DNA from: a virus
Taxonomy: Duplodnaviria; Heunggongvirae; Uroviricota; Caudoviricetes
Direction: 5' to 3' (one strand)
DNA: 64,000 nt
Virus record (IMG/VR): IMGVR_UViG_3300033155_000407
Of the stretch, positions 4,543 through 49,361 are shown one piece after another (the stretch's first letter is position 1; each line of letters starts with the position of its first letter). The translations under genes were made by a program, and so were the position numbers. Below the pieces are notes generated by a model. That model worked only from the letters and a program-made list of their open reading frames with translations. It had not been told where the DNA came from and did not search any database.

Positions 4543-4886
4543 TGGCAGGACATACGAGCGAAAAACGCTGGGAAAACGTTAGTACAACAGCAAGCGGTAT
4601 AGTTGCACAATTAACAAGTATATTAATTAACACTGAAGAGTCTTATCAGCAAATGCTAGAGATTTATGCTTATGCTGGTGGTACAGATGAACTATTAGCA
4701 GAGTTACTATTTAAAGAAGATATAGCTCTAAGAGATTCACCAGACAACGTAGTTAGTACTGAGGAAATAGCAAAAGCTGGAGACTTAGTTAATGCTATGA
4801 CGTCGGCCCATCAAATTTATCAAGCAGCAAATAACGTTGTTGTAACTCAAGCCGATAGATTATCTGATTTAAGGAGAATGATTTGA
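4542..4886 (+). CDS. hypothetical protein
   Basis: 114-aa ORF, translationally coupled (TAATG overlap with terL). Confidence 0.45.
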   Translation: MAGHTSEKRWENVSTTASGIVAQLTSILINTEESYQQMLEIYAYAGGTDELLAELLFKEDIALRDSPDNVVSTEEIAKAGDLVNAMTSAHQIYQAANNVVVTQADRLSDLRRMI

Positions 4887-5515
4887 AATTTTTATACTTA
4901 CTACTATTATTACCTATGCTAGCATTTGGTGATGATTGTACAGGCAACCCACATCACTGTGATCATGGTGATCATACAGGACCTCCAGGAGTTGATGGAG
5001 TTGATGGAGTTGATGGAGTTGATGGAGTTGATGGTGCTCCTGGCGTTGATGGAGTTGATGGAAGAGATGGTCTTAATGGTATCGATGGGTTAAATGGTAT
5101 CGATGGGTTAAATGGTCTGAATGGAAGAGATGGTATAGTTTCAGAAACTTGGATCAAAGAAACTCGTAGTTTTCAAGAACGTTTCGGCAGATGGTCCGCA
5201 GCTAGTGAGGCTGTACAGATTTACTTACCCCAAGATCAAAATCAAAGATTAACTTTTGGTATAGGTAGAATGGCAGACCACACCGGTTATGGCCTCGGCT
5301 ATGCTTATAAAACTACTCGCGAAGACAGCTTAGCCTTCACTTTTGGCTTAGGTAAGAGCGGTAGTGAAGAAGTAGCAAAAGCCAGTTTTGGATTCGAATT
5401 TGGGGGAAGTACTAAGAAACCTAAGCTGACAGCCACTAAGTATAGAGCTGAATTGGAGTGTGCATACGTTGGTGGGGAACTAACCCTTTCTAATGAATGC
5501 GTGATAGACGAATGA
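4883..5515 (+). CDS. secreted collagen-like repeat protein (signal peptide, 17 G-X-Y triplets, C-terminal Gly/aromatic-rich domain)
   Basis: N-terminus MKFLYLLLLLPMLAFG is a signal peptide; GPPGVDGVDGVDGVDGVDGAPGVDGVDGRDGLNGIDGLNGIDGLNGLNGRDG; 9-nt tandem DNA repeats (ggagttgat) at about 4990-5060. Confidence 0.6.
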   Translation: MKFLYLLLLLPMLAFGDDCTGNPHHCDHGDHTGPPGVDGVDGVDGVDGVDGAPGVDGVDGRDGLNGIDGLNGIDGLNGLNGRDGIVSETWIKETRSFQERFGRWSAASEAVQIYLPQDQNQRLTFGIGRMADHTGYGLGYAYKTTREDSLAFTFGLGKSGSEEVAKASFGFEFGGSTKKPKLTATKYRAELECAYVGGELTLSNECVIDE

Positions 5516-6111
5516 ACTGGATATTTAAAGTTCCGGTATTCGTAACAATTTGGGCAGCTTATTTATTGGTGAAAATACCTACGGCATTATCGGGTTTCCT
5601 GGTAGTGCCCTTTTTGTGGAAGTACAGAGACACAGATTATCTTAATCTACCCTACTGGACTAAACCGTGGGCTAACCCCGAGGATTGGGACGGTGGACCT
5701 AGTAGCTATGAAAGTAGCTTACCAAAGTGGTGGGTTGATACTAGAGGTAAGGATTTGAAAGCATTCTATCAATATCACGCTATAAGAAACCCAGCAAATG
5801 GTTTACGTAGTTTTGAATTCATGGATTTAGACATAGACCCTAAAAAAGTAGAATTCAGAACTAATAAAGAATTTGTTAGATATGAGCCTAATACTTTAAG
5901 AGCATGGGACATGAAATTATCTTGGTACTTTGCGTGGCAAGGGTGGCGTGCTGGTATGAAGTTTATATATATTTGGAATGATGAAAGACATGCAGTTATT
6001 AAATTTGGTTGGAGGGTTGAACCCTCGGACGCCAAAGCTACTGATACAGAGGTTATGGGTTTAGCCGATGCTAGTTTTGCGTCTAAGGTATTACCATATA
6101 GGAAAGGCTAG
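5497..6111 (+). CDS. hypothetical membrane protein
   Basis: 204 aa with an N-terminal hydrophobic helix (IFKVPVFVTIWAAYLLVKIPTALSGFLVVPFLW); Trp-rich. Confidence 0.45.
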   Translation: MRDRRMNWIFKVPVFVTIWAAYLLVKIPTALSGFLVVPFLWKYRDTDYLNLPYWTKPWANPEDWDGGPSSYESSLPKWWVDTRGKDLKAFYQYHAIRNPANGLRSFEFMDLDIDPKKVEFRTNKEFVRYEPNTLRAWDMKLSWYFAWQGWRAGMKFIYIWNDERHAVIKFGWRVEPSDAKATDTEVMGLADASFASKVLPYRKG

Positions 6112-6242
6112 TGGGTTCTTTTATTGCAGGTTTTTTAGCACTAAGTTTATTTGGTTACATTTTGGTCCACGCTTTTGGGTGGGGGGCTTTCACTTGGTAT
6201 GTAGCACTAGCTTTAATAGTCATGTGGCTTACAGATGAGTAA
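6111..6242 (+). CDS. possible small two-TM membrane peptide (43 aa, GTG start overlapping the upstream stop as TAGTG)
   Basis: Translation VGSFIAGFLALSLFGYILVHAFGWGAFTWYVALALIVMWLTDE; below the ORF-track size cut-off. Confidence 0.25.
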   Translation: MGSFIAGFLALSLFGYILVHAFGWGAFTWYVALALIVMWLTDE

Positions 6243-6344: not shown

Positions 6345-6740
6345 ATGTCTACACTTAAAAGAATTCCAATTAAATATGTCCGGGATAGAGCTAAGAGCCG
6401 CTACATCAAAGACTCTGAGTGCTATGTGTGCCAGGTAGGTGGGTCGTTAGACTTCCACCACCTTTTAACTGTGGATATATTATTTGATAATTGGTTGAAA
6501 AAGAACAATCTAAAAATTAATACTGTAGAAGATATAATTGCAGTACGTGATGACTTTATAGAGAGTCACTTATACGAAATGTATGATTATGCTAAAACTC
6601 TATGTAGAACTTGCCATAAACGACTGCATTCTGTATACGGACAAAGACCTCTGTTGTCTACCGCCCCTAAGCAAGAACGCTGGTTAGATAAACAAAAGGA
6701 AAAGAAATGTCCGAAGAACAAGGTATCCTTAGTATTTTAA
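6345..6740 (+). CDS. HNH endonuclease
   Basis: CYVC...HH...CRTCHKRLH, a classic HNH zinc-finger/beta-beta-alpha-Me arrangement; lies between the terminase and the portal, as in HK97-type packaging modules. Confidence 0.7.
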   Translation: MSTLKRIPIKYVRDRAKSRYIKDSECYVCQVGGSLDFHHLLTVDILFDNWLKKNNLKINTVEDIIAVRDDFIESHLYEMYDYAKTLCRTCHKRLHSVYGQRPLLSTAPKQERWLDKQKEKKCPKNKVSLVF

Positions 6741-7303
6741 TCCAAGATTACGCTCTTTATGCTGTAGCAGTTAGCACTATTGTAGGGGGTTTAATAACCG
6801 TATATAAAAAAGGGGTAAAACCAGTGCTAAAACATTTTACAGAATGGTACGCCATGCAGGAAAAAATCAATACTATCTTCGATGAGATTACACCAAATGG
6901 TGGTACCTCCATAAAAGATAAAGTTGATCAAACGTATAAAGGTTTACACTTATTAGGTCAAATACAAGACGCTATGGCGGCAGATACTAAAGCTGCCCTT
7001 TTTAGAACCGATCCAGAAGGAAATTGCGTTTGGGTCAACCGTACTTACACTAGAACTGTTGGTAGAGATGTCTCTGAATTACTTGGTCACGGGTGGCAAA
7101 ATGCTATCGCGACCGAGGATAGAGAACATGTAGTAGCAGAATGGTATAGGGCAGTTGAAGAAAACCGTGACTTCGTAGTGGATTATAGATTTGAAACTCC
7201 TGACGGCAAGATAATATCTTGCAAGTGCAGAGGTTACAAAATGGTATGTCCAACAGGAGAATTATTAGGTTATCATGGAAACTGTGAGATCCTAAAAAAA
7301 TAA
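6707..7303 (+). CDS. membrane-anchored PAS-domain protein
   Basis: N-terminal TM helix (ILSILIQDYALYAVAVSTIVGGLITVY) followed by a PAS-like fold (EGNCVWVNRTYTRTVGRDVSELLGHGWQNAIATEDREHVVAEWYRAVEENRDFVVDYRFETPDGKIISCKCRGY); no output domain. Confidence 0.55.
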   Translation: MSEEQGILSILIQDYALYAVAVSTIVGGLITVYKKGVKPVLKHFTEWYAMQEKINTIFDEITPNGGTSIKDKVDQTYKGLHLLGQIQDAMAADTKAALFRTDPEGNCVWVNRTYTRTVGRDVSELLGHGWQNAIATEDREHVVAEWYRAVEENRDFVVDYRFETPDGKIISCKCRGYKMVCPTGELLGYHGNCEILKK

Positions 7304-7306
7304 TAT

Positions 7307-8515
7307 ATGAGTATATTAAAATCATTAGAATTTGCTTGGAAGCACAGAGGTCAACCAGGCATACAAAGAATAGAAGGTACTACTCACCAAAGTGAACGAA
7401 GTCGCTTCTTCTTTGAAAAAAGTTATGACCATATAGAAATAGTTAGACGTGGTGTAGATATGATAGTCGATTCTGCTACAGAAATCGATGTTAGTATAAC
7501 CGGGTCTTTAAATACTAATCCTATACATAAGGGTGGAAGACAACGCCAAAAAACACTATTAACAATACTTAATTTTCGTCCAAATAAAAATGAAGATGTA
7601 AGTACGTTTAGACGTGAATTAATTATGGATTTTGTTCTTACAGGTAACTGTTACCAATATTGGGAAAAAGAAACTAGTAGTCTATACTATCTTCCCGCTA
7701 AGTTAATGGAAGTAGTTACTTCTAGTAGTGACAAAGTAAGTCACTATGAATTTGAGGGAAAGACTAAGTTCTTTCCACATGAAATCATACACACCAAAGA
7801 CAACAGTGCAACTACTCAATATACAGGCAGATCTAGATTATTCTGTACTAAGAATACAATAAATATATTGAGAAGCATGTTAGACTTCCAAGAGAACTTT
7901 TTTGACAATGGGGCTATACCAGGCCTTATTATTCAAACGCCTAATATCTTAGGCAACAAGTTAAAAGAAAAAATGCTAGTACAATGGAAAGCAAGATTTA
8001 ATCCTAAGGATGGAGGGCGTAGCCCCATGATCCTAGATGGGGACTTAAAAGTTAATCCACTTAGTACTACTAAGATTAGTGAGCTAGATTTTGAAACATC
8101 TATTGATTCACACGAAACCAAGATTCTAAAAGCACTAGGCGTACCGCCTGTACTATTAAATTCTGGTAACAATGCAAATTTAAGACCTAATATACAATTA
8201 TTTTACGAAATGACAGTTTTACCGCTAGTATCGAAACTTATTAGTTCTTACGAAAGATTCTTCGCCTATGATATGGAACCAGAAGTAGTCAAAGTAAGAG
8301 CTCTACAGCCAGAATTACGAGATGCGGCACAGTATTTTACAGGATTAGTTAACGCGGGGATTATGACCGCGGATGAAGCGCGAATTGAGCTAAGGCTCGA
8401 TCCTATGAAGGATGGGGAATCGGATAAATTAAGGATTCCAGCCAACATTGCAGGTAGCGCGACAGACCCCTCAGAGGGAGGAGCACCACCCGACCCTGAG
8501 AATGAAGACGAATAA
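7307..8515 (+). CDS. portal protein (HK97-family-like)
   Basis: 402 aa with an acidic C-terminus, located between the terminase/HNH and the capsid gene. Confidence 0.7.
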   Translation: MSILKSLEFAWKHRGQPGIQRIEGTTHQSERSRFFFEKSYDHIEIVRRGVDMIVDSATEIDVSITGSLNTNPIHKGGRQRQKTLLTILNFRPNKNEDVSTFRRELIMDFVLTGNCYQYWEKETSSLYYLPAKLMEVVTSSSDKVSHYEFEGKTKFFPHEIIHTKDNSATTQYTGRSRLFCTKNTINILRSMLDFQENFFDNGAIPGLIIQTPNILGNKLKEKMLVQWKARFNPKDGGRSPMILDGDLKVNPLSTTKISELDFETSIDSHETKILKALGVPPVLLNSGNNANLRPNIQLFYEMTVLPLVSKLISSYERFFAYDMEPEVVKVRALQPELRDAAQYFTGLVNAGIMTADEARIELRLDPMKDGESDKLRIPANIAGSATDPSEGGAPPDPENEDE

Positions 8516-8536: not shown

Positions 8537-10504
8537 ATGCTAACAAAAAACAAAGTTCTAAAACTCAATGTACCCTTCACAAAGGAGTTACATGATGACG
8601 ACGAAGATAACGAAGAACTTATCATTTCTGGGCTAGCAAGCACTAACGATGAAGATCGTTCGGGTGATATCATTGCGTCTGATGCCTGGAAGAAAAAGAG
8701 CGCGTTAAGAAACTATCTTAAGAACCCTGTTATTTTAGCTTTTCATGATGATTCTAGACCAATTGGTAAGACTATACATCATGAAATTCAAGAGAACGGG
8801 CTAGCTATTACAGCTAAGATTAGTAAATCAGCAGGCGATATTTTAGACCTAATCAAAGAGGGAATACTTTCCGCTTTTAGTGTTGGGTTTATGATTAAAG
8901 ATGCAGACTTCGACCCTAAATCAGGGATTTTTATGATTAAGGAAGTAGAACTTTTCGAAGTTAGTGTTGTTTCTATACCTGCTAATCAAAACGCACTTTT
9001 CAGTGTAGAGAAAAACTTCTCTAATCCTGAAGATTACAAAGAGTTTAGGAATCAATTTATCAAAAATGAGGAAACTTTAATGGAAGATAAAACCGACAAA
9101 AAAGTAGAGCAAAAAATCGATCTAGCCGTATTAGCCGCTGAAATTTCTGCGCAAATTAAGGGCGACCTTAAAGCCGAAGAAAAAGCTGTAGCTGAGGCAG
9201 AAAAAGCAGCTCAGGATGAAGTTGCAAAGATGGACGCTACTGCTACAACAGCTGCTGAACGAGTTATTAAAGACTTACGTACAGAGCTAGATGAAAATAA
9301 CGCTTCCTTCACGGAAGCACTAGAGGGTATCAGAGATGCACTTAAGAAAGAAGCTGATGATGGAGAAATTCAAAAAGCTTTAAGCGCTGAAATCACAGAC
9401 AGTAAAATGTCATTCGCGGATGTTAAGTCTAGTATTGAACAAATACCTCAAGGCACACGTGATGGTATGATGTATGCCTCTAAGATTTTCGGTTGCAAAA
9501 TCGAAGATACAAAGACTTTCAAAAACTTAGTTACTAAGTCTAATATGGAACATTGGGACTCCGGTGTTACAGGTGAGTGGGAAGATGAGTATTCAACCCG
9601 TGTACAAAATGCTCTACGTGAGCAACTAGTAGTAGAACCCCTATTTACTAGTATCGCGATGACTACGCCTACTCTAAATATGCCGATTAACCCAGAAGCT
9701 GGTGACGCTACTTGGGTGCATAGTAATGCATTCCGCTCAAGCGGTAACCCTGCTGCTGAAACCGGTGATGGTACAGATACATCAACTGGCGCGGCTCAAA
9801 ACCACCAAATTGATGAACAAGTGTTGATTGCTTACAAGCTTGCAACACGTGAGTACATCGGTTATGAAGAAGAAGAAGATAGTATTGTAGCTCTTGCTCC
9901 AATCATCACAGACGCAGTTGTTCGCAGAATGGCTCGTGCTTCTGACCTATCTTTCCTACGCGGTGGAGGTGTTCTAACATCTGCAGCTTTTGATCCTATT
10001 CTAGGACTAGAAGGCCGTGGCGCTCTAACTACTGATGTAACAATCGCTGGTGCAGCAGCTTGGGAAGCTAACTTAACAGAAGATGTAGTAGCTACAATGC
10101 GTAGAAACCTAGTACTTTACGGTATTGATTCTTCACAATTAGTACTATTAGTATCTCATGACCTTTATTACGGTCTAATGACACTACCTCTGTTCAAATC
10201 TGTTGCAGAGTACGGCCCACAAGCGGCTACCGTTCACGTTGGTGAAGTAGGTAGTATCTTTGGTGTTAAAGTACTTGTATCACAAATGTTCGATAACGCA
10301 GCTATTACAACTGGAACATTAACAACAACACTTGGAATCATGTGTCGTCCAGCTAACTTCATACGAGGTGAGCTACGCGGAATCATGACTGAGGCTGATC
10401 GTGATATCATCAACCAGAAACGAGTTCTTGTTTCTAGTCGTAGATTTGCGTTCAACGATATTATCACAGGCCAAGGTACTGTGAACTTAGAAATCTCTTC
10501 TTAA
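8537..10504 (+). CDS. fused prohead protease (HK97 S78-like) / coiled-coil scaffold / major capsid protein (HK97 fold)
   Basis: N-terminal protease motifs (AFHDDSRPIGKT...FSVGF...EVSVVSIPANQNA), a central E/K/A-rich coiled coil, and a C-terminal 300 aa typical of an HK97-fold MCP. Confidence 0.8.
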   Translation: MLTKNKVLKLNVPFTKELHDDDEDNEELIISGLASTNDEDRSGDIIASDAWKKKSALRNYLKNPVILAFHDDSRPIGKTIHHEIQENGLAITAKISKSAGDILDLIKEGILSAFSVGFMIKDADFDPKSGIFMIKEVELFEVSVVSIPANQNALFSVEKNFSNPEDYKEFRNQFIKNEETLMEDKTDKKVEQKIDLAVLAAEISAQIKGDLKAEEKAVAEAEKAAQDEVAKMDATATTAAERVIKDLRTELDENNASFTEALEGIRDALKKEADDGEIQKALSAEITDSKMSFADVKSSIEQIPQGTRDGMMYASKIFGCKIEDTKTFKNLVTKSNMEHWDSGVTGEWEDEYSTRVQNALREQLVVEPLFTSIAMTTPTLNMPINPEAGDATWVHSNAFRSSGNPAAETGDGTDTSTGAAQNHQIDEQVLIAYKLATREYIGYEEEEDSIVALAPIITDAVVRRMARASDLSFLRGGGVLTSAAFDPILGLEGRGALTTDVTIAGAAAWEANLTEDVVATMRRNLVLYGIDSSQLVLLVSHDLYYGLMTLPLFKSVAEYGPQAATVHVGEVGSIFGVKVLVSQMFDNAAITTGTLTTTLGIMCRPANFIRGELRGIMTEADRDIINQKRVLVSSRRFAFNDIITGQGTVNLEISS

Positions 10505-47703: not shown

Positions 47704-47979
47704 ATGAAAACGTTTGTAAAGGACCCACAAGCTACGTTAGATTATGGATTCAACTGGGGGCCTTGGTTGGGTACGGACACAATTAGTAGTAGTGTGTGGA
47801 CCATAAACCAAAGCGGACTCAGTATTGTCATTGCCAGCGAAACTTTTGATAATACTACTACGTTATTATATTTAACTAGTGGTGCCGAAAATGAAAAGTA
47901 TATAGTAACTAATACTATAAGTACAGCTGCTAGTAGGACAGATGAACGTAGATTTGAGATAGTAATTAAACAAAGATAA
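47704..47979 (+). CDS. small hypothetical protein (91 aa)
   Basis: ORF with a GGAGTAAT RBS. Confidence 0.4.
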   Translation: MKTFVKDPQATLDYGFNWGPWLGTDTISSSVWTINQSGLSIVIASETFDNTTTLLYLTSGAENEKYIVTNTISTAASRTDERRFEIVIKQR

Positions 47980-48023: not shown

Positions 48024-48446
48024 ATGGCAAGTTTTGGAAATAGCTCAAGAGAACAACTAAACACCTGCAGATCGGAAATAGTAGACACACTAGAAATAGT
48101 GGTTAAAGAGTTCGATATAACAGTATTAGAAGGCCGAAGGTCTTGGAAAAGACAGGCTGAACTATTAAGGCAGGGCAAAACTAAGGTAGGACCTGGCGGT
48201 TCTAAACATAACCCACCAACAGAAGATGATACCGAATGGTTATCTCACGCTGTAGATATAGCCCCTTATCCAATTGACTGGAACGATTCCAAGCGTTTTA
48301 TATATATGGCTGGTTTAGTTATTGGAGTAGGAAGAACCCTGGGTTATGACTTTAGGTGGGGAGGAAATTGGGATGAAGATCAAATCATTATTGACGATCA
48401 GAATTTTGATGATTTACCACACATTGAATACAGAGGAAGAATATGA
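48024..48446 (+). CDS. endolysin, peptidase M15 (L-alanyl-D-glutamate peptidase, T5 Lys-like)
   Basis: 140 aa; FGNSSREQLNTC...SKHNPPTEDD...HAVDIAPYP...DWND...RWGGNW...LPHIEY; the H/D/H zinc ligands and overall alignment match the T5 endolysin as I recall it. Confidence 0.8.
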   Translation: MASFGNSSREQLNTCRSEIVDTLEIVVKEFDITVLEGRRSWKRQAELLRQGKTKVGPGGSKHNPPTEDDTEWLSHAVDIAPYPIDWNDSKRFIYMAGLVIGVGRTLGYDFRWGGNWDEDQIIIDDQNFDDLPHIEYRGRI

Positions 48447-48652
48447 ATCAAGTAACAAGAGCAACAGGACCAACTATTGGAATGGCCTTAGGATACTTTG
48501 CCGTATTGTGGGGAGTTAATAGTGGTTATATTAATGCAACTGATCAAGCTGAAGCAGTAGCTATGGCAGGTATTGCTGGTGTACACGTAGTAAATGAAAT
48601 TAAACATTTTTTCGTTTGGTTTGCTTCGTTGTTTGCTAAAAAGGAAGAGTAG
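48443..48652 (+). CDS. holin candidate
   Basis: 69 aa with two hydrophobic helices and a charged C-terminus, directly after the endolysin with an ATGA overlap. Confidence 0.5.
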   Translation: MNQVTRATGPTIGMALGYFAVLWGVNSGYINATDQAEAVAMAGIAGVHVVNEIKHFFVWFASLFAKKEE

Positions 48653-49035
48653 TGTTTGGTATAGGTGGAATAGTCAAATGGGTAGCTATAGCAGGTATTG
48701 TAGCTTCTATAGGTGTAGGAATTAGTAAGGGTTATGAATACCACTTAGACCAGATAGATAAAGCAGTTATCTCCTCACAGAGACAACTGGCGCTGGCTGC
48801 TGCCGATAGATTACGCAAAACAGAAGCTGAATTACGTGCTATATCTATAGCAGATAAAGCTGTGATAGAAAAGGAATTAGTTGTTGAAAGAGCTAAAGTC
48901 ACGGACCTACAACGAATGTTACTGGTCGAGCATGACTTTGATAAGCTGCTACAAAGAAAACCTGATTCTATATTACGATTAGTAAATAAGGGCACGAAAG
49001 ACTACTTCAAGGAATTGGAGGAAACTACGCAATGA
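48652..49035 (+). CDS. i-spanin (Rz-like)
   Basis: N-terminal TM helix followed by coiled-coil periplasmic domains. Confidence 0.55.
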   Translation: MFGIGGIVKWVAIAGIVASIGVGISKGYEYHLDQIDKAVISSQRQLALAAADRLRKTEAELRAISIADKAVIEKELVVERAKVTDLQRMLLVEHDFDKLLQRKPDSILRLVNKGTKDYFKELEETTQ

Positions 49036-49361
49036 AGAAATACTTATTTTTATTATTGTTCTTATCTGCGTGTGGTCATACTCCAGAAATCGAAGTTTTA
49101 ACAGAGTTCGTCTATGTAGATGTGGTTTGTGAAGACTTCGGACATATAAATGGAATAAACCCTTTACCTGTGATTTTCGTAAAAGGAATCAGTGATAAGG
49201 GCTACAGAGTGCTAGGTTTACGTGGAGACATGTATTCGAATCTAGCTATTAACAGTGCGGATACCTTAAGGTATCTAAAAGAACAGACAAAAGCTATTGA
49301 TTACTATAAGAAATGCATCAGTGACCACAACGCTGTGCAAGACGAGGGGCCACCCAATTAG
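49032..49361 (+). CDS. o-spanin lipoprotein (Rz1-like)
   Basis: MKKYLFLLLFLSACGHT contains an LSAC lipobox; 109 aa. Confidence 0.6.
   Translation: MKKYLFLLLFLSACGHTPEIEVLTEFVYVDVVCEDFGHINGINPLPVIFVKGISDKGYRVLGLRGDMYSNLAINSADTLRYLKEQTKAIDYYKKCISDHNAVQDEGPPN

Follow-up and report, generated by a model that had tools for sequence, protein, structure and literature searches.

Introduction

Lysis timing is a central phage life-history trait, and few conditional forms of it are known, namely lysis inhibition in T4 and N4 and the quorum-sensing receptors of some temperate phages. In T4 lysis inhibition, the accessory proteins RI and RIII couple a signal to holin activity (PMC11413866). The PAS proteins known from phages, VqmA-Phage among them, are soluble regulators of the PAS-HTH type, and VqmA-Phage of vibriophage VP882 is a quorum-sensing receptor for a cue that governs the lysis decision (PMC8284805). 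LysF1b of F1-cluster mycobacteriophages is a 124 amino acid (aa) protein with one N-terminal transmembrane (TM) helix in N-out/C-in orientation, and its gene overlaps the upstream lysF1a gene for a two-TM protein by ATGA; deletion causes a severe lysis defect, the protein is required for energy-poison-triggered lysis, and in 2026 it was proposed as a new holin class and assigned to Pfam DUF2746 (PMC13056207). Here we analyze an open reading frame (ORF) at 6707..7303 (+) in a 64,000-nucleotide (nt) stretch of Caudoviricetes DNA (IMG/VR record IMGVR_UViG_3300033155_000407; the whole stretch is called the window below). It encodes a 198 aa protein with a single TM helix, a juxtamembrane PNGG motif and a C-terminal PAS domain, and profile comparisons relate its membrane part to proteins from actinophage lysis cassettes.

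The window protein has the same topology and membrane-part size as the proteins of the LysF1b/Ms6 gp27 class (DUF2746, phrog_404). These proteins, reported mainly from phages of Gram-positive hosts, carry a charged helical C-terminal tail (30-50% DEKRH) that is needed for complementation; the window protein has a PAS domain instead. VqmA-Phage also has a phage-encoded PAS domain, but it comes from a temperate phage and acts as a soluble transcription factor, whereas the window protein is anchored in the membrane, has no domain for DNA binding and is encoded by a T5-like phage that is presumably virulent. T4 RI likewise spans the membrane once and has a globular sensing domain, but this domain is periplasmic and not of the PAS type; no sequence or fold similarity of the window protein to RI was found, and the likeness is functional only. 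With respect to the canonical holins (classes I-III), the window protein had no holin match in PHROG or Pfam, and its gene is not adjacent to an endolysin gene.

A membrane-anchored PAS protein

From its ATG start, the ORF is predicted to encode a single TM helix (6749..6805, +; residues ~15-33, by hydropathy), a juxtamembrane motif I-F-x-E-I-T-P-N-G-G-T-S-I-K-D (6875..6919, +; residues 57-71, from the alignment, the AlphaFold2 (AF2) model and a phrog_9869 match over residues 52-75), a linker helix and a PAS domain (6974..7291, +; residues ~90-195, from Pfam, AF2 and Foldseek). The original prediction, made from the sequence of the window, had described one N-terminal TM helix and a PAS-like fold with no kinase, GGDEF or other output domain, and had suggested a profile search (PAS_4, PAS_9) and a structure prediction as checks. 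Both analyses agree with this description. It had missed the invariant PNGG motif, and also that TM helix and motif form a separate, widespread phage module that is found mostly in lysis cassettes.

Four Pfam profiles, all matching over residues ~90-190, scored above their cut-offs: PAS_3 (E-value 6.8e-10, 39.5 bits versus a cut-off of 25.6), PAS (1.4e-8, 35.2 versus 22.6 bits), PAS_4 (6.9e-7, 29.9 versus 23.1 bits) and PAS_9 (2.3e-6, 28.3 versus 27 bits). Only PAS families matched the 198 aa protein at E <= 1, and the HisKA/HATPase or HAMP-MCP outputs of sensor kinases and Aer-type chemoreceptors were not found at this threshold. The AF2 model, based on 24 homologues, has a pLDDT of ~95 over residues 90-195, with strands and helices in the order expected for the five-stranded antiparallel beta-sheet and flanking helices of a PAS fold. 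Foldseek returned 572 matches in the PDB at E <= 1e-3, all of them PAS or LOV domains, with target TM-scores of 0.73-0.83; the best were the FAD-binding PAS domain of NifL (2gj3), the PAS domain of CPS_1291 (3lyx), the CagFbFP LOV domain and ARNT PAS-B, at 12-22% identity. Direct sequence matches to solved PAS domains were marginal (BMAL2 PAS-B, 1.7e-3; Aer PAS, 7.5e-3). The canonical fold is thus common to the window protein and to bacterial membrane-associated PAS sensors (Aer, NifL PAS1, LOV proteins, sensor kinases), but the window protein has no kinase, HAMP/MCP, GGDEF or HTH output, and the PAS domain is its C-terminal end.

Residues N111, R112, T113, E124, G127, G129, W130, N132, R139, W146 and R154 of the PAS domain are invariant in the family alignment. 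G-x-G-W and D-R-x-x-V-x-x-x-W with a subsequent Arg are kept across the broad family of PAS fusions, which suggests a single origin of the fusion. The position of the LOV motif GxNCRFLQ is taken by GHGWQN in this family, so that the LOV Cys motif is not conserved, and the Aer residues in contact with FAD, R57 and H58, align with Ala and Gln. The family alignment contained no conserved His in the F-alpha helix.

Full-length homologues of the protein were all metagenomic (n = 37, 39-82% identity, in a database of 5.8 billion proteins). Matches in this database at E <= 1e-3 were confined to members of the phage family, and no close cellular PAS domain was among them. Comparison of the gene with six orthologues gave dN/dS values of 0.18-0.34 at dS 1.5-2.3, as expected for purifying selection; together with the homologues, this shows that the ORF is real and not an artefact of gene overlap. 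A tblastn search of the protein against 50,697 GenBank phage records gave no match, so that no cultured phage is known to carry the fused protein. The original prediction had called PAS sensors rare in phage morphogenesis modules, and for this particular protein the tblastn result supports the rarity.

The TM-PNGG module

Between the TM helix and the PAS domain, residues I57, F58, E60, P63, N64, G65, G66, S68, K70 and D71 are invariant in the alignment. The core of this stretch, P-N-G-G-x-S-[ILM]-[KR]-D (residues 63-71), is found in 24/24 close homologues and also holds across 146 cluster representatives, with the extended consensus [DE]-x-[IL]-x-x-E-[LFIV]-x-P-N-G-G-x-S-[ILM]-[KR]-D. A family of unknown function, phrog_9869, matches the window protein (E 6.7e-5 and 1.1e-5), and the match is confined to the motif stretch. 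In the AF2 model, residues 62-66 have a pLDDT < 50 and form a low-confidence break between a helix at residues 3-61, which includes the TM segment, and a helix at residues 69-90, which leads into the PAS domain.

The charge distribution around the TM helix points to an N-out/C-in topology. In the window protein, an acidic N-tail (MSEEQG) would be outside and a basic stretch (YKKGVKPVLKH) inside. Among 176 family members, the 15 residues before the TM helix contain on average 0.30 Lys+Arg and the 15 residues after it 3.66, and in 96.6% of the members the charges fit N-out/C-in by the positive-inside rule. The median N-tail in this set is 8 residues long, and the motif Asn lies 31 residues past the TM helix (interquartile range 28-35). 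This pattern would place both the motif and the PAS domain in the cytoplasm.

When the N-terminal 92 residues were used as a profile, a word-indexed search retrieved numerous stand-alone proteins (63-136 aa) in which this TM helix and the ELKPNGGTSIKD motif precede a short coiled coil. Among 1.84 billion cluster representatives, an exhaustive HMM search identified 1009 clusters (50% identity) at E <= 1e-3. Of the top 146 representatives, 112 had a length of at least 180 aa, and extra domains in these 146 were PAS_3 (94), PAS (86) and PAS_4 (82), with any other family in at most 3. PAS is therefore the sole recurrent C-terminal fusion partner of the TM-PNGG module. By profile-profile comparison (hhalign), the N-module of the PAS family and the stand-alone PNGG family are homologous (probability 99.8%, E 9e-29, 80 columns). 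One apparent multi-motif protein, P0150 (1181 aa, five 'motif' stretches), was rejected as a repeat protein with chance 'APNGGS'.

The closest known proteins are members of phrog_9869 and phrog_15431, such as mu1/6 gp52, Sonali gp22 and LiSara gp70. They resemble the window protein in the acidic N-tail, the single TM helix, the basic stretch and the (E)(L)xPNGGxS(I/L)(K/R)D motif ~31 residues after the TM helix. They are 63-160 aa long, end in a short coiled coil and are encoded in actinophage lysis cassettes, whereas the window protein has a PAS domain instead of the coil, a gene in the head module and a phage with a Gram-negative host. Some actinophage stand-alone members (in loci L013, L017, L018 and L019, and P0055) have a second conserved, PARPGVPARPGV-like element between the TM helix and PNGG, which is absent from the PAS-fused family.

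Genomic contexts of stand-alone and fused forms

The stand-alone module was found in the lysis cassettes of five separate actinophage lineages. The uncultured actinophage L006-8 has a minor tail gene, the module gene (P0101), an endolysin gene (phrog_21357, 4e-46) and an 83 aa two-TM holin-like ORF. In Streptomyces phage mu1/6, endolysin gp50 and holin gp51 are followed by gp52 (phrog_9869, 2e-32), whose gene overlaps the end of the holin gene; the pairing of gp51 and gp52 is like that of the LysF1b class with a two-TM holin-like gene. Arthrobacter phage Sonali has gp22 (the module), endolysin gp23 and holin gp24, and gp70 of Arthrobacter phage LiSara, with matches to phrog_15431 (1e-100) and phrog_9869 (1e-18), is annotated as 'holin'. 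Gene 040 of Thermobifida phage P1312 (L017:4833-5276) overlaps the start of the amidase gene. The public label of P1312_040, 'sensory protein kinase CreC', is an annotation error, as this is a stand-alone TM-PNGG protein.

The 53 stand-alone loci from IMG/VR almost always consist of a tail gene (635-735 aa), the module gene, a gene for a 150-195 aa protein and genes for small TM proteins. The protein downstream of the module is an endolysin where it could be identified (L041, 5e-66); the phrog_32486 proteins encoded 3' of many stand-alone genes gave no identification.

The fused form was found in 22 IMG/VR loci and further contigs, in varied contexts. In the T5-like clade of the window, the order is nickase, PAS and portal (L001, L002, L004, L016, L021-25). 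Elsewhere the gene lies between a ribonucleotide reductase (RNR) gene and a Mom-like gene (L026-28), at the end of a late operon after the gene for a ~1500 aa protein (L014, L029), before a tail-fibre-assembly-like gene (phrog_1084) and the gene for a giant protein (L033), or near DNA polymerase III genes (P0037). P0037 and P0143 represent a variant with a longer coiled coil before PNGG and a Pro/Arg-rich C-terminal tail past the PAS domain; they are encoded in a phage whose DNA polymerase III alpha genes are split and which also has a 'Volactin' gene.

One fused lineage (L031/L032) has the gene inside a lysis cassette. There, a 103 aa two-TM holin-like ORF is followed by the PAS fusion, a 149 aa N-TM coiled-coil protein and a 153 aa protein with a signal peptide and a C-terminal TM helix (both spanin-like ORFs), and a Peptidase_M15_4 endolysin (2.3e-10). 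The neighbours of the fused genes in L035-37 and L081 also look lysis-like (70 aa TM, 307 aa and ~110 aa TM proteins), but were not counted, as they had no PHROG, Pfam or PDB match beyond a sub-threshold papain hit. A fused gene (locus L033:3856-8229) and a stand-alone gene (P0121, locus L009:6001-11305) both lie directly upstream of a phrog_1084 gene and the gene for a 1100-1460 aa protein. This shared locus type suggests that the two forms are interchangeable.

Relation to LysF1b

Che8, a phage of the F1 cluster, encodes a LysF1b-class protein, gp35 (L020:7205-7579), which matches phrog_404 (2e-45) and has homologues that carry PF10874. The phrog_404 proteins are widely mislabelled as 'minor tail protein'. 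The motif that follows the TM helix of gp35, EIHEQTVNTHDTNMRDDLDEI, aligns in register with KIFEEITPNGGTSIKDKVDQT, and several stand-alone PNGG proteins match phrog_404 weakly (down to 2e-5). In hhalign comparisons with DUF2746, the stand-alone PNGG family gave a probability of 58% (E 1e-4, score 30.1), colinear from TM helix to motif, and the N-module of the PAS family gave 27%. Column-shuffled DUF2746 profiles scored 10.1 +/- 1.9 (maximum 16.2), and 0/120 reached 30.1. The resemblance to LysF1b in topology, motif placement and gene pairing is solid; homology of the PNGG module to LysF1b is probable but unproven.

The PAS gene in its phage clade

The window derives from a T5-like (Demerecviridae-like) phage with 37.9% GC, and in a DNA search of the head region only the terminase gene was linked to T5-like phages. 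The gene order is that of a T5-type small terminase, TerL, accessory genes, nickase, PAS gene, portal, protease-capsid fusion and tail genes, with the replication genes on the opposite strand to the head and tail genes. As stated in the original prediction, the PAS ORF lies between an HNH endonuclease gene and the portal gene. The upstream gene (6345..6740, +) encodes a T5-type HNH nicking endonuclease and overlaps the PAS ORF by 34 nt; it is 36% identical to the gene adjoining the portal gene of the cultured phage SSP1, and its orthologues carry PF26848. Downstream, the PAS ORF ends 4 nt before the ATG of the portal gene (7307..8515, +; Phage_portal 7e-48).

Loci with relatives of the window portal were searched upstream of the portal gene, using the family HMM and the nickase. 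An intact PAS gene between nickase and portal was present in all 7 loci with a portal identity of at least 73%. At 71% identity the gene is split into ORFs of 123 aa and 71 aa (L107:1073-1683), and at 66% a frameshifted 37 aa N-terminal remnant and a 115 aa PAS remnant are left (L110:2201-2697). The otherwise invariant Trp146 is lost in both. L107 and L110 come from different samples and have different disruptions, and pseudogenisation is the apparent cause, with assembly error a less probable one. In T5-type relatives (41-46% portal identity), and likewise in SSP1, the nickase and portal genes abut with nothing between them.

Three loci with 60-68% portal identity (L108:251-535, L109:1802-2062 and L112:3715-3963) have no PAS gene, but instead encode a protein of 94, 86 or 82 aa, respectively, whose short N-tail is acidic and whose single TM helix is followed by a cytoplasmic coiled coil; a PNGG motif is lacking. 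These proteins scored < 7 bits against both the PNGG and the DUF2746 profile and were rejected as homologues; they are architectural analogues only. The slot between nickase and portal thus seems reserved for a bitopic N-out/C-in membrane protein. The PAS gene itself is accessory and clade-specific, and can be lost. This makes an essential role in portal or prohead assembly unlikely, and fits a modulator rather than a structural necessity.

Expression and the lysis cassette of the window

A Shine-Dalgarno-like AAGGA, read from the sequence, is located 6 nt before the ATG of the PAS ORF (6696..6700, +), within the 3' end of the nickase gene, and translation of the PAS ORF is probably coupled to that of the nickase gene. 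From the nickase gene to the capsid gene end, no terminator-like site was found, and the PAS gene is therefore probably transcribed late, with the head genes. A promoter scan gave no enrichment over shuffled sequences.

The lysis genes of the window are clustered at 48024-49361. They comprise a T5-type L-alanyl-D-glutamate peptidase as endolysin (48024..48446, +; phrog_465 6e-29, PDB 2mxz 3.6e-7), a 69 aa holin candidate with 2-3 hydrophobic segments and a charged C-terminus (48443..48652, +), which had no PHROG or Pfam match, and two Rz-like spanin genes (48652-49035 and 49032-49361, +; phrog_739 8e-5 and phrog_812 2e-6). The spanins indicate a Gram-negative host.

A possible role in lysis timing, and alternatives

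PAS domains typically signal via dimerisation changes that are relayed along N-terminal helices. As the PAS domain of the window protein is terminal and no enzymatic or DNA-binding output is present, the membrane module must be the effector. We tentatively favor a cytoplasmic PAS sensor acting on a lysis-type membrane module, which it would modulate so as to adjust when, or how efficiently, lysis occurs. We put this forward because the N-module is homologous to stand-alone lysis-cassette proteins in five actinophage lineages, because one fused lineage (L031/L032) is located inside a lysis cassette and PAS is the sole recurrent partner, and because LysF1b shares the topology and gives a colinear profile match, the gene is accessory, and its expression is probably late.

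The protein would then be an accessory, late-expressed, bitopic inner-membrane protein in N-out/C-in orientation, in which the PAS domain replaces the usual charged coiled-coil tail. An intracellular cue (a ligand, or the redox or energy state) would change the dimerisation or conformation of the PAS domain, and this change would be relayed via the linker helix (residues 69-90) and the PNGG hinge. Oligomerisation of the TM module, or its contact with the phage holin (candidate 48443-48652), would be altered, and lysis timing or efficiency tuned. We propose, by inference, the endolysin as pathway partner and the 69 aa holin candidate as the target of regulation. Host-state sensing, one of two roles suggested in the original prediction, is plausible for the PAS protein.

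Several observations weigh against a role in lysis. The PAS gene is outside the lysis cassette of the window, 41 kb away, and this cassette looks complete already (endolysin, holin candidate and two spanins). The contexts of the fused family are heterogeneous (head module, RNR/Mom-like genes, tail-fibre region, isolated), and a lysis-cassette location is demonstrable in one of ~9 fused lineages. The 'holin' labels in databases are positional guesses, and the searched literature contained no experimental study of a stand-alone PNGG protein. The hhalign link to LysF1b/DUF2746 (58% and 27%, as given above) is weak, the window protein had no match to PF10874/DUF2746 in Pfam at E <= 1, and a reversed profile scored 21.1, so that the signal is in part compositional. 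The PAS domain allows no assignment of a cofactor or ligand: flavin-binding PAS domains are the best structural matches, yet the flavin-contact motifs are absent.

T4 gp40 promotes portal assembly at the inner membrane. The window protein could, by analogy, act in head, portal or packaging functions, either as a tether to the membrane or as a chaperone, with the PAS domain binding portal, nickase or terminase. This is close to the assembly role at the membrane that the original prediction had derived from the gene position, and we consider it rather unlikely. All close relatives have the order nickase-PAS-portal without exception, and their reading frames there overlap or abut; the gene is probably transcribed together with the head genes, and the bitopic N-out/C-in proteins in the slot of the PAS-less loci L108, L109 and L112 suggest selection for a membrane protein. 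However, T5-type phages share the nickase, portal and capsid genes but have an empty slot, and the PAS gene is broken in L107 and L110, with loss of the invariant Trp. Homologues elsewhere sit in quite different contexts and not beside portal genes, and the relatives of the N-module are found in lysis cassettes, not in head modules. The TerL-to-portal interval is also variable and is filled with other accessory envelope proteins. The position-based argument for assembly is weakened by these observations.

A host-takeover or protection factor unrelated to lysis appears similarly improbable. The PAS domain could be a decoy for host sensor kinases or chemoreceptors, as PAS domains commonly act by homo- or heterodimerisation and the window protein has no output domain, or the protein could serve in superinfection exclusion or anti-defence at the membrane. 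The gene is accessory and patchy like a moron gene, its contexts are heterogeneous, and it is located among envelope-targeted accessory genes. On the other hand, the confinement of database matches to the phage family gives no sign of recent capture of a host sensor. Phages of very different kinds have retained the PAS domain along with the PNGG module, and this points to a phage-intrinsic partner. Nor would this reading account for the occurrence of the module relatives in lysis cassettes.

The chance of a random reading frame, or of an artefact of the HNH/portal gene overlap, is negligible: it has nothing but the 34 nt overlap with the upstream gene in its favor, and the conservation data (dN/dS, 37 full-length homologues, ~100 clusters with the same architecture), four PAS profiles above cut-off and a confident fold prediction already refute it.

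PAS domains and a lysis-type single-TM module are already known. What is new is that they are fused, that the TM-PNGG/PAS fusion spans at least ~100 clusters (50% identity), and that a T5-like phage with a Gram-negative host encodes it. We found no description of the architecture or of the PNGG motif in the searched literature. A few 'PAS domain' proteins in BFVD, ~200 aa long, uncharacterised and from uncultured phages, share the overall shape. The present data define the PNGG module as ~1000 clusters (50% identity) with an invariant motif of unknown role, and correct misleading public annotations (such as 'minor tail protein' and 'sensory protein kinase CreC'). The tentative tie of the PNGG family to the single-TM N-out/C-in holin class would extend this class from actinophages to phages of Gram-negative hosts.

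If the PAS protein does tune lysis, it would be a compact, testable device that links an intracellular cue to a membrane event. The data suggest, short of proof, that certain lytic phages couple what happens at the membrane, for instance the timing of lysis, to an intracellular signal. A more general proposal is doubtful, but can be formulated. TM-PNGG-PAS proteins might belong to the holin machinery, or regulate it, under the control of a signal: they would read redox state, energy state or a metabolite, and the LysF1b-like module would set the moment of permeabilisation. Virulent phages would then have, besides T4-type lysis inhibition, a second way to make lysis timing conditional, by a distinct mechanism, and it would be widespread among uncultured phages that infect Gram-negative bacteria.

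Other features of the window

The interval between TerL and portal, whose content varies among relatives (e.g. L002 and L004), contains further genes for envelope proteins in the window. A collagen-like 210 aa protein with a signal-peptide-like N-terminus MKFLYLLLLLPMLAFG is encoded in the head module, between TerL and nickase (4883-5515, +); it has G-x-D repeats, a Pfam Collagen match (7.7e-10) and a weak match to the YadA anchor. It is followed by a DUF7338 membrane protein (204 aa) and a 43 aa two-TM ORF (5497-6242, +). Together with the PAS gene, these are four consecutive envelope-targeted accessory genes.

Downstream of the portal gene, a 655 aa ORF (8537-10504, +) encodes a fusion of prohead protease (Peptidase_S78) and major capsid protein. 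The fusion is kept in all relatives of the clade, and the two genes are separate in the T5-type phage SSP1. Near the lysis genes, a 91 aa protein (47704-47979, +) matches PF23148, 'podophage GP4 fiber-tail adaptor gp77' (6e-22), despite the T5-like and presumably siphovirus genome.

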